From Escherichia phage ime, in sequence record MN850576.1: a stretch of 64,000 bases of DNA. One strand, given 5' to 3'. Made by a program: the position numbers and the translations under genes. Positions 5,359 to 6,267 of this stretch are shown piece after piece (within the stretch, counting starts at the first letter, position 1; each line of letters starts with the position of its first letter). The notes under the pieces are model-generated. The model ran no database searches and was not told where the DNA came from. It saw only the letters and a list, made by a program, of their open reading frames with translations.

Positions 5359-5435
5359 TGGTCTCCACGGAGTGATTCGAACACTCGACCTCCTGATCCC
5401 AAATCAGGCGCTCTACCAAGCTGAGCTACGCGGAG
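5359..5435 (-). tRNA. tRNA-Pro (anticodon TGG)
   Basis: Manual cloverleaf: C1-G72 acceptor (typical of Pro), D-arm TAGCTCAGCTTGGTAGAGC, anticodon stem CCTGA/TCAGG with loop TTTGGGA, T-loop TTCGAAT, encoded CCA. Confidence 0.85.
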
Positions 5436-5446
5436 TATTTATTATT

Positions 5447-5521
5447 TGGTGGCCCTGGGTGGAATTGAACCACCGTCTGGCGATTATGAGTCGCTTGCTT
5501 GAACCTTCCAGCTACAGGGCC
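5447..5521 (-). tRNA. tRNA-Met (anticodon CAT; elongator-type or Ile-CAT not distinguishable)
   Basis: Manual fold: acceptor GGCCCTG/CAGGGCC, anticodon loop CTCATAA, T-arm GGTGG-TTCAATT-CCACC, encoded CCA; G1-C72 pair argues against initiator. Confidence 0.75.
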
Positions 5522-5522
5522 A

Positions 5523-5598
5523 TGGTGCTGATGGCAGGACTTGAACCTGCAACCTATTGATTACAAATCAATTGCACTACCAATTGTGCTACATCAGC
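5523..5598 (-). tRNA. tRNA-Thr (anticodon TGT)
   Basis: Manual fold: acceptor GCTGATG/CATCAGC, D-stem GCAC/GTGC, anticodon stem ATTGA/TCAAT loop TTTGTAA, T-arm GCAGG-TTCAAGT-CCTGC, CCA. Confidence 0.85.
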
Positions 5599-5603
5599 AA
5601 AAA

Positions 5604-5702
5604 GGTGCTAGGTGATGGAATCGAACCACCTATGTATTCAACGACTACCTCGTCTATTTTCAGGATTAAAAATCCTCGCCCTTGCCAAAGGGCTTACCTA
5701 GC
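5604..5702 (-). tRNA. aberrant tRNA-like element (Lys-TTT-like anticodon arm; about 25-nt insertion in variable region); possible pseudo-tRNA
   Basis: Perfect 7-bp acceptor GCTAGGT/ACCTAGC, D-arm GCCC-TTTGGCAA-GGGC, T-arm GGTGG-TTCGATT-CCATC, anticodon arm AGGA-TTTTTAA-TCCT; about 30 nt between anticodon and T arms; CC but no terminal A encoded. Confidence 0.4.
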
Positions 5703-5800
5703 TCAGTATGTTGACCATGTTGCTAGTCGGCGATGACGACTGTAACATTTGATAATCCGGTTCTGCTTCCGGCTTTCGCTTAATTACAAGGTCAACAATA

Positions 5801-5891
5801 TGGCTGAGGGTAATGGAATCGAACCATCATCAAGTCATCCTCAACGGGACGGTTTTCAAGACCGCTTGAGCACCATTGCTCCCTACCCTCA
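5801..5891 (-). tRNA. tRNA-Ser (anticodon TGA), type II with long variable arm
   Basis: Manual fold: acceptor TGAGGGT/ACCCTCA, anticodon stem GCGGT/ACCGT loop CTTGAAA, long variable arm, T-loop TTCGATT, encoded CCA; 91 nt. Confidence 0.8.
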
Positions 5892-6005
5892 TTTATAAAC
5901 AATACTGATAATGACACTGATTTTCGAGCAGTTAGTGACTAGTATAAACGACGATAAATATCAATGCCATTATCTGTATGATTTATGCATTTAAAACTAT
6001 AAATT

Positions 6006-6092
6006 TGGTGGGGAGTGGTGGAGTCGAACCACCCGAGTCGCAATGACAATAGATTTACAGTCTACACCGCTACCCCTACGGGATAACTCCCC
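6006..6092 (-). tRNA. tRNA-Tyr (anticodon GTA), type II
   Basis: Anticodon arm GTAGA-CTGTAAA-TCTAT, variable arm about 15 nt, T-arm GGTGG-TTCGACT-CCACC, acceptor GGGGAGT/ACTCCCC, CCA; resembles bacterial tRNA-Tyr layout. Confidence 0.8.
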
Positions 6093-6096
6093 AATT

Positions 6097-6171
6097 TGGC
6101 ACCCCGTACTGGACTCGAACCAGTGTCAACGGCTTAGAAGGCCGCTGCTTTATCCACTAAGCTAACAGGGC
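6097..6171 (-). tRNA. tRNA-Arg (anticodon TCT)
   Basis: Acceptor GCCCTGT/ACGGGGT (2 G-U pairs), D-stem GCTT/AAGC, anticodon stem GCGGC/GCCGT loop CTTCTAA, T-arm ACTGG-TTCGAGT-CCAGT, CCA. Confidence 0.8.
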
Positions 6172-6267
6172 ACTGGGTGGCTTTCTTTTACACCTTAGCC
6201 GCCAGAAAAGGTGGGAGACCATGTTTACAATATTACACTGTTAAGCAAAGTTTGTCAAGAAAATATT

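Follow-up and report, generated by a model that had tools for sequence, protein, structure and literature searches.

A conserved tRNA-like RNA gene of Vequintavirinae phages with a probable role outside decoding

The transfer RNA (tRNA) cluster of Escherichia phage ime was analysed within a 64,000-nucleotide stretch of record MN850576.1 (the window, to which all unlabelled positions refer). One member of this cluster, at 5604..5702 on the minus strand, is an unusual tRNA-like RNA gene of 99 nucleotides (nt) including the discriminator A and CC, in which RNA position i corresponds to window position 5703-i. The element is best explained as a gene for a non-decoding tRNA mimic, which belongs to a family specific to the Vequintavirinae phages and most likely acts as a protein-bound look-alike (probability of about 0.55). 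Judged by sequence comparison, it represents rV5 in a family of tRNA-like RNAs that is restricted to phages and hitherto undescribed. No description of the element RNA was found in the literature, including the papers on rV5, on PARIS and on phage tRNAs.

Structure of the element and selection on its fold

The first-pass annotation, made from the letters alone, had pointed to a tRNA-like element at 5604-5702, and the analysis confirmed it, with the gene on the minus strand. ARAGORN calls a 99-nt 'tRNA-???' at exactly these positions, with a four-base anticodon AUCC at position 37. The Rfam tRNA model (RF00005, gathering score 29 bits) matches the window copy at 35.5 bits (E = 4.5e-5), treating 26 nt of the variable region as inserted. 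The minimum-free-energy fold recovers all five helices at -34.2 kcal/mol (z = -3.66), and none of 200 shuffled sequences was as stable.

All parts of the RNA are given here 5' to 3', with window positions on the minus strand. The acceptor strand GCUAGGU (5696..5702) forms seven perfect base pairs (bp) with ACCUAGC (5607-5613), as the annotation had said. A8 and A9 (5694-5695) precede the D arm GCCC-UUUGGCAA-GGGC (5678..5693). This arm can also be drawn with a 6-bp stem and a UGGC tetraloop, as in tRNA-Sec, and the minimum-free-energy fold draws the stem as 6 bp. After a single G comes the short 'anticodon' arm AGGA-UUUUUAA-UCCU (5662..5676), which carries the UUU triplet and the motif UAAUCC. 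The 15 nt of this arm form either 4 bp with a 7-nt loop or, as AGGA(U)-UUUUA-(A)UCCU, 5 bp with a 5-nt loop. The variable region occupies RNA positions 42-72; it consists of the 5' linker GAAAAUA (5655..5661), the extra hairpin GACGA-GGUAG-UCGUU (5640..5654) and the 3' linker GAAUACAUA (5631..5639). The spacing of about 30 nt and the hairpin noticed earlier between the anticodon and T arms were thus confirmed, the exact length being 31 nt. The RNA ends with the T arm GGUGG-UUCGAUU-CCAUC (5614..5630) and the 3' acceptor strand with discriminator A and CC (5604..5613); the terminal A of CCA is not encoded, and a U-run comes next. Of the arms described as canonical, the T arm with its UUCGAUU loop deserves the name; the D arm, with A8/U14 and the alternative 6-bp stem and 4-nt loop, does so only in part.

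The AUCC fold returned by ARAGORN was rejected. Its inferred stem AUUUU/AAAAU is only 40% paired in the orthologues, versus 100% for the AGGAU/AUCCU arm.

Orthologues were recovered by sensitive BLAST, pattern scans and a covariance model, which gave 29 distinct sequences. In a MAFFT alignment of 13 distinct sequences, unguided by structure, all 286 of 286 stem cells hold standard pairs and 9 of the 22 pairs are changed on both sides; sliding the 3' partners by 1-3 columns as a control lowered the pairing to 32-44%. When the 29 sequences were aligned to the model, 99.4% of stem cells were paired and 13 of 22 pairs were compensatory. This second alignment is biased to structure by construction, and the unguided result agrees with it. 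Among the 29 sequences the acceptor stem is 100% paired with 5 of 7 pairs changed on both sides, the D stem has 3 of 4 compensatory pairs and the T arm is 100% paired. The UU…AA that extends the D stem to 6 bp is invariant and hence gives no covariation either way. The covariation count included a single tertiary pair, 19:56. In 10 of 29 sequences U19:A56 stands in place of the pair between G19 of the D loop and C56 of the T loop, and no sequence breaks this pair. This switch with the pair staying intact argues for a true tRNA-like elbow in the RNA.

Identity of the window copy to its orthologues is 66-91%, compared with 63-77% for the neighbouring tRNA-Thr, tRNA-Arg and tRNA-Tyr and a background of 50% in the flanking spacer. 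Conservation of the element therefore equals or exceeds that of the true tRNAs beside it. Since the stem pairing is kept with compensatory changes, the elbow pair included, the element is very probably a selected, L-shaped tRNA-like RNA.

The orthologues occur in five genera of Vequintavirinae, namely Vequintavirus, Avunavirus (Av-05, 19-1-2), Seunavirus (PVP-SE1, 4MG, KE22, EspYZU15, SalP219, GAP31), Mydovirus (Mydo, BIS47 and Klebsiella phages) and Henunavirus (Erwinia phages pEp_SNUABM_01 and Hena1), and in IMG/VR and metagenome contigs of 137-152 kilobases; 166 phage records match the element. Every orthologue sits within a tRNA cluster, and in the other genera its start is often 2 nt past the CCA of the preceding tRNA. 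The family, for which the covariance model R1 stands, was defined by a cloverleaf with a short arm, a variable region of the form GAAAA…hairpin…AUACAUA, A8/U14 and location in a phage tRNA cluster, and the window copy has every one of these features. R1 scores it at 104.6 bits as the sole copy in the window; all 38 collected copies reach 85-122 bits, and ordinary tRNAs reach at most 25 bits. The Certrevirus phage CR3 has no copy in its tRNA cluster, where the top R1 matches are ordinary tRNAs at 24.5 bits or less.

The signature ATACATAGGNGGTTNGATTCC had no match in 185,579 bacterial and archaeal species represented by one genome each, and as a pattern it retrieves family members from phage-type contigs only. 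The element likewise had no match in 5,426 complete genomes of E. coli. An origin from the host was rejected on these two negative results. They bear also on the idea, raised in the annotation, of a tRNA with an insertion, no related sequence being present in either set of genomes. A recent insertion into a tRNA-Lys is not supported by the orthologues either, all of which have the enlarged variable region and the invariant linkers.

Decoding features and the enlarged core

The 'anticodon' arm comprises 15 nt in Vequintavirus, Avunavirus and Henunavirus-type copies and 16 nt in Seunavirus and Mydovirus, the canonical length being 17. Its stem covaries among AGGAU/AUCCU, AGGUC/GACCU, AGGCC/GGCCU and GGGC/GCCC. 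The loop is 5-8 nt long across the family. It reads UUUUUAA in Vequintavirus, UUUAUAA in Avunavirus, CAUCAAA or UAUCAAA (with A33) in Henunavirus and metagenome copies, and CAUCCA, CAGCCA, CCGCCA, CCUCCA or CUUCCA in Seunavirus and Mydovirus; GUGAUA is a further type. U33 is found only in the two clades of E. coli phages, and A or C takes its place in most clades. The nominal triplet is accordingly UUU (Lys), UAU (Ile), UCA (opal) or none, depending on the clade. The ends vary as well: A, U or C serves as discriminator, and the RNA terminates in UCCA, in ACC or without CCA, UCCA being encoded in other genera and CCA missing in Avunavirus. A8 and U14, in place of the universal U8:A14 of tRNA, are invariant in all copies.

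None of the copies outside the rV5 group is called by ARAGORN. The best Rfam match of the Seunavirus (26.5 bits) and Henunavirus (37.6 bits) copies is tRNA-Sec (RF01852, gathering score 47) and not tRNA, both scores being below the threshold. This preference arises from the possible 6-bp/4-nt D arm, the long extra arm and the resemblance of the Henunavirus loop to CUUCAAA.

Taken together, the comparison suggests that the element is probably non-decoding. The variation of the triplet on a constant body is a stronger argument against decoding than the arm geometry. A Lys-type anticodon arm had been assigned from the window alone. It is indeed present in the rV5 copy, with 15 nt instead of 17, and it is not a trait of the family; the Lys identity seems to be specific to the rV5-like lineage, because close relatives have UAU, UCA or 6-nt loops.

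Unusual anticodon loops were also seen in other genes of these clusters. The tRNA-Ile(GAU) just upstream of the element in Seunavirus (L003 1119-1191; L004 1118-1194) has an abnormal anticodon loop without U33, which is ACGAUUC in KE22 and an 8-nt ACAGAUCC in EspYZU15, where ARAGORN reports 'tRNA-???(agat)'. Odd anticodon loops may thus be a wider habit of these phage tRNA clusters. Two element-bearing clusters from metagenomes contain a tRNA with the anticodon CUA (L044 7862-7934, L054 2791-2865), which is of the amber-suppressor type and is named 'tRNA-Pyl' by ARAGORN.

The enlarged variable region follows one plan in all copies. Between the arm and the T stem lie GAAAA(N1-3), a hairpin and (N1-2)AUACAUA, and the cores of both linkers, GAAAA and AUACAUA, are invariant in the alignments. 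The interior between these cores is 19 nt long in the window copy and reaches 29 nt in others, so that the whole region spans 31 to about 41 nt. Nearly every orthologue folds this interior into a hairpin, whose sequence and length differ; those that deviate are two Vequintavirus-type metagenome copies, almost identical to each other, which carry single mismatches, and a third copy that contains Ns. In one type of hairpin the 12-nt loop, GAAYUAACAGUA, is conserved. Such a pattern indicates that the extra part, linkers and hairpin together, is functionally constrained.

Two explanations considered for the 3' linker gained no support. An antisense target was sought in the window through the complement CCTATGTATT with one mismatch allowed, and the four sites found, which include the element itself, are no more than the 4.9 expected by chance. 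A mini open reading frame spanning the linker (UUG/GUG-AAU-ACA-UAG) was set aside, the start codon not being conserved in other clades.

Directly downstream of the element, Seunavirus and Avunavirus have another non-coding stretch that is conserved and structured and measures about 165-190 nt (L003 1306-1496, L004 1306-1495, L007 1239-1429, L005 1301-1480, L027 515-705); the window lacks it. Its ends are tRNA-like (UGCAU…AUGCA, GCUC…GAGC) and enclose an insertion of about 105 nt, and 18 of its 61 predicted pairs are compensatory. No Rfam match was found for this stretch.

Known relatives, mode of action and rival explanations

The element resembles class I elongator tRNAs, and tRNA-Lys(UUU) among them (RF00005), in the 7-bp acceptor stem, the 5-bp T stem, the UUCGAUU loop, G18G19 and the 19:56 elbow; the rV5 copy adds the UUUUUAA loop, A73 and its score with the tRNA model. 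Unlike elongator tRNAs, it has A8/U14 instead of U8/A14 and an arm of 15-16 nt; its variable region far exceeds the 4-5 nt of class I tRNAs; and, unlike in tRNA-Lys, the loop, the triplet and the discriminator vary among orthologues. Hence the element fails several defining features of elongator tRNAs despite the fact that the window copy passes the Rfam tRNA threshold.

With tRNA-Sec the family shares a D arm that can be drawn with a 6-bp stem and a 4-nt loop, and that Rfam aligns in this way in the Seunavirus and Henunavirus copies, the long extra arm and, in Henunavirus, a loop C/UAUCAAA close to the CUUCAAA of tRNA-Sec. Membership was nevertheless rejected. The copies score below the gathering score, and for the window copy the tRNA model outranks tRNA-Sec. 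The acceptor and T stems are 7+5 bp rather than 8+5 (the 13-bp helix in bacteria), and the discriminator is U, A or C and not G73. UCA is missing in most clades, occurring only in Henunavirus-type copies and there with A33 for U33, and the extra arm of the element is flanked by long single-stranded linkers. No transfer-messenger RNA (tmRNA) was detected in the window by ARAGORN and no Rfam tmRNA match at the element. YrlA (RF02553, gathering score 69) had no match on the element, its weak matches of 25 and 21 bits falling on neighbouring tRNAs.

In their situation, the RNAs most like the element are species 1 and 2 of phage T4 (rnaC, rnaD), which are also small stable RNAs without an assigned function encoded in a phage tRNA cluster, rnaC ending in a tRNA-like T arm. 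Unlike the element, they measure 139 and 119 nt and are not cloverleaves. Homology was rejected, R1 giving them 6.8 bits at most, below ordinary T4 tRNAs.

Non-translating tRNA-like RNAs include the Bacillus cereus tRNA-Other (a pseudo-tRNA), the tRNA-like YrlA modules of bacterial Y RNAs and the vtRNAs of gammaherpesviruses. All of these are tRNA-shaped, undergo tRNA-like processing and have roles outside decoding. By analogy, the element most likely works like these look-alikes. They are not known to be related to the element in sequence.

The proposed mode of action may be outlined as follows. The element would be transcribed from the minus strand together with the phage tRNAs of its operon and released in a tRNA-like manner, by an RNase P cut at the 5' end, trimming of the 3' end and completion of CCA where needed. 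The RNA would then take the form of an L in which the acceptor/T-arm and the D-loop/T-loop elbow are normal, the core is enlarged by the two invariant A-rich linkers and the extra hairpin, and the 'anticodon' arm is presumably too short and too variable for reading codons. In this form it would most likely be bound as a tRNA look-alike by a tRNA-recognising protein, without translating. Recognition by a protein and not by a codon is suggested because invariant single-stranded linkers are combined with a tRNA body.

The preferred candidate for the partner, on speculative grounds, is a host tRNA-targeting defence nuclease, other tRNA-binding partners being possible. That the element is a nuclease decoy can be put forward only tentatively, from circumstantial evidence. 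The small tRNA set of rV5 (Arg-UCU, Tyr, Thr-UGU and the Lys-like element) overlaps with known nuclease targets. Genes for RNA ligase 2, a phosphatase and a nucleotidyltransferase of the RNA-repair-associated PF10127 type are present in the related Proteus phage Mydo (L057 10971-13032, 47445-48515), and these repair-type genes suggest that phages of this kind deal with damage to RNA or tRNA. A doubtful extension of this idea is an evolvable decoy, in which a constant L-shaped body with an enlarged core barring translation would carry a fast-evolving arm tuned to the tRNA nucleases of each host genus. For the E. coli phages, an RNA with the AriB-type motif UAAUCC and a Lys-like loop such as PrrC attacks would soak up or block such nucleases.

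The AriB nuclease of PARIS cuts the tRNAs Lys(UUU), Thr(UGU) and Asn(GUU) at U36AAUC|A41, or at UAAUC|C41 in tRNA-Asn, a weaker substrate whose recognition and cleavage motif is UAAUCC (PMC12409363). Phage T5 encodes PARIS-neutralising variants of the same three tRNAs (PMC11464382, PMC12409363), which are phage-encoded and tRNA-shaped as the element is. The motif read by AriB, UAAUC, belongs to the anticodon arm's 3' half, and the rV5 element has UAAUCC and adjoins the phage tRNA-Thr(UGU). The T5 variants, in contrast, are normal translating tRNAs that escape through point substitutions; the arm and core of the element are abnormal, and its relation to PARIS is speculative.

Several observations weigh against a non-decoding mimic, and against a decoy for PARIS in the first place. 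UAAUCC occurs in the rV5 and Avunavirus arms only and is absent in three genera, and the adjacent phage tRNA-Thr(UGU) retains a fully cleavable UAAUCA; the PARIS-specific account is thin for both of these reasons. A simple decoy does not obviously need invariant linkers and an extra hairpin. Natural deletions in two Vequintavirus genomes, V18 (locus about 1150-1247) and O157 typing phage 4 (about 1130-1232), leave no intact element. They fuse a 5' portion of tRNA-Tyr with a 3' portion of the element, the junctions lying in the variable arms or the near-identical T arms, and abolish Tyr, Ser and the element as working genes. The element RNA is therefore dispensable under laboratory propagation. 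Searches of the literature found no data on expression, ends, aminoacylation or binding of this RNA in any phage. Finally, three clades gain a 17-nt arm with a 7-nt loop once the flanking G.G is taken as a 27:43 mismatch, and in these clades the arm geometry alone does not exclude decoding.

The last point leads to the rival that survives best, an unconventional decoder, which rV5-like phages would have as tRNA-Lys(UUU), Avunavirus as tRNA-Ile(UAU) and Henunavirus as a UGA suppressor (UCA). The loop UUUUUAA of the rV5 copy offers U33, UUU and A37, and the discriminator is A73, features shared with E. coli tRNA-Lys as identity elements for LysRS. The score above the gathering threshold of the Rfam tRNA model, tRNAscan-based GenBank annotations as tRNA-Lys or tRNA-TERM and the 17-nt arm just described (with G.G as pair 27:43) speak for the same. 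Moreover, phage tRNA variants can rescue infection from tRNA nucleases (PMC11464382, PMC12409363, PMC11555353), and the odd body might allow a decoder to evade the host anticodon nucleases. Such a decoder is nonetheless unlikely. It would have to carry three different triplets or 6-nt loops on one conserved body across genera, with A or C for U33 in most clades and a variable discriminator. Its A8/U14, and a variable region of 31-41 nt that includes invariant linkers, have no counterpart in elongator tRNAs. Contig L054, from a metagenome, already has a normal tRNA-Lys(UUU) beside its element, and the copies outside rV5 fail with both ARAGORN and the Rfam tRNA model.

A role in cis on the operon transcript, be it as a partial terminator or as a tRNA-shaped signal for processing or punctuation, with no function of the free RNA, is distinctly improbable. 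Punctuation by tRNA-like structures is an established principle, the element is located between tRNAs of one operon, and a terminator-like structure was flagged in rV5, made up of the T arm, the acceptor strand and the UUUUU after them. The U-run, however, is restricted to rV5, RNase P sites are already available in the neighbouring tRNAs, and the distance to the preceding tRNA is 2 nt in other genera. Nor would punctuation need invariant linkers, a maintained hairpin or covariation of the G19:C56 elbow.

A decaying, functionless pseudo-tRNA left from a larger ancestral tRNA set, as one option of the first-pass annotation had it, would agree with the tRNA-Pseudo label in some records, the loss by deletion in two Vequintavirus genomes and the far smaller tRNA set of rV5-like phages than of their Seunavirus or Certrevirus relatives, yet it is strongly disfavoured and for practical purposes excluded, because covariation across five genera (99.4% pairing, 13 compensatory pairs) comes with conservation at or above the level of the adjacent true tRNAs, the single-stranded linkers being invariant. 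From the three options named in that annotation, a tRNA-derived regulatory RNA comes closest, in so far as a tRNA-like functional RNA appears to fit best.

Operon context and wider meaning

In the window, ARAGORN places seven genes on the minus strand at 5359-6171, the element and six ordinary tRNAs. Their order in transcription is tRNA-Arg(UCU), Tyr(GUA), Ser(UGA), the element, Thr(UGU), Met/Ile2(CAU) and Pro(UGG). Directly upstream of tRNA-Arg, at 6230..6258 on the minus strand, a scan found the strong sigma-70-like site TTGACA-17-TAATAT with 10 of 12 consensus matches, which may function as the promoter of the tRNA operon. Because of this site, the seven genes look like one operon.

This 1.1-kilobase tRNA region is 99-100% identical to that of rV5-like coliphages (genus Vequintavirus, subfamily Vequintavirinae). 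In their records the same gene is labelled tRNA-Lys, tRNA-OTHER, tRNA-Pseudo, 'tRNA-???(atcc)' or tRNA-TERM, or is unannotated. The rV5 genome paper lists six tRNAs and omits the element (PMC3606486). Eighteen GenBank MG0656xx records of 'Campylobacter phage', with C. jejuni as the stated host, are also 99-100% identical to rV5-like coliphages here, and from this identity the attribution to C. jejuni seems doubtful.

Two long spacers on the minus strand, 5703-5800 (98 nt) and 5892-6005 (114 nt), interrupt the otherwise tightly packed operon. They have no Rfam match, no noteworthy open reading frame and no homologue in other Vequintavirinae genera; the absence of Rfam matches and homologues led to their rejection as part of the element. 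A weak promoter-like site is located at 5970-5941 within the second spacer. The CAU-anticodon tRNA at 5447-5521 (minus strand) is recorded as Met in most records and as Ile (codon ATA) in the records of BASEL phages, the candidate identities being elongator Met and lysidine-modified Ile2.

Phage tRNA genes are now partly seen as counter-measures to host nucleases that cut tRNA. The element differs from these in that strong selection on structure maintains its tRNA shape, in five phage genera or more, in an RNA apparently unable to decode, which suggests that phages put the tRNA fold to a second use outside translation. The mixed GenBank labels (Lys, TERM, OTHER, Pseudo or none) inflate or distort tRNA counts and calls of suppressor tRNAs in studies of codon usage. 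The family is small, well defined and present in easily grown phages (the rV5-like phages of BASEL), and its function is therefore directly testable by deletion and complementation. An evolvable decoy, if true, would make the element the first RNA to inhibit a bacterial immunity that targets tRNA.

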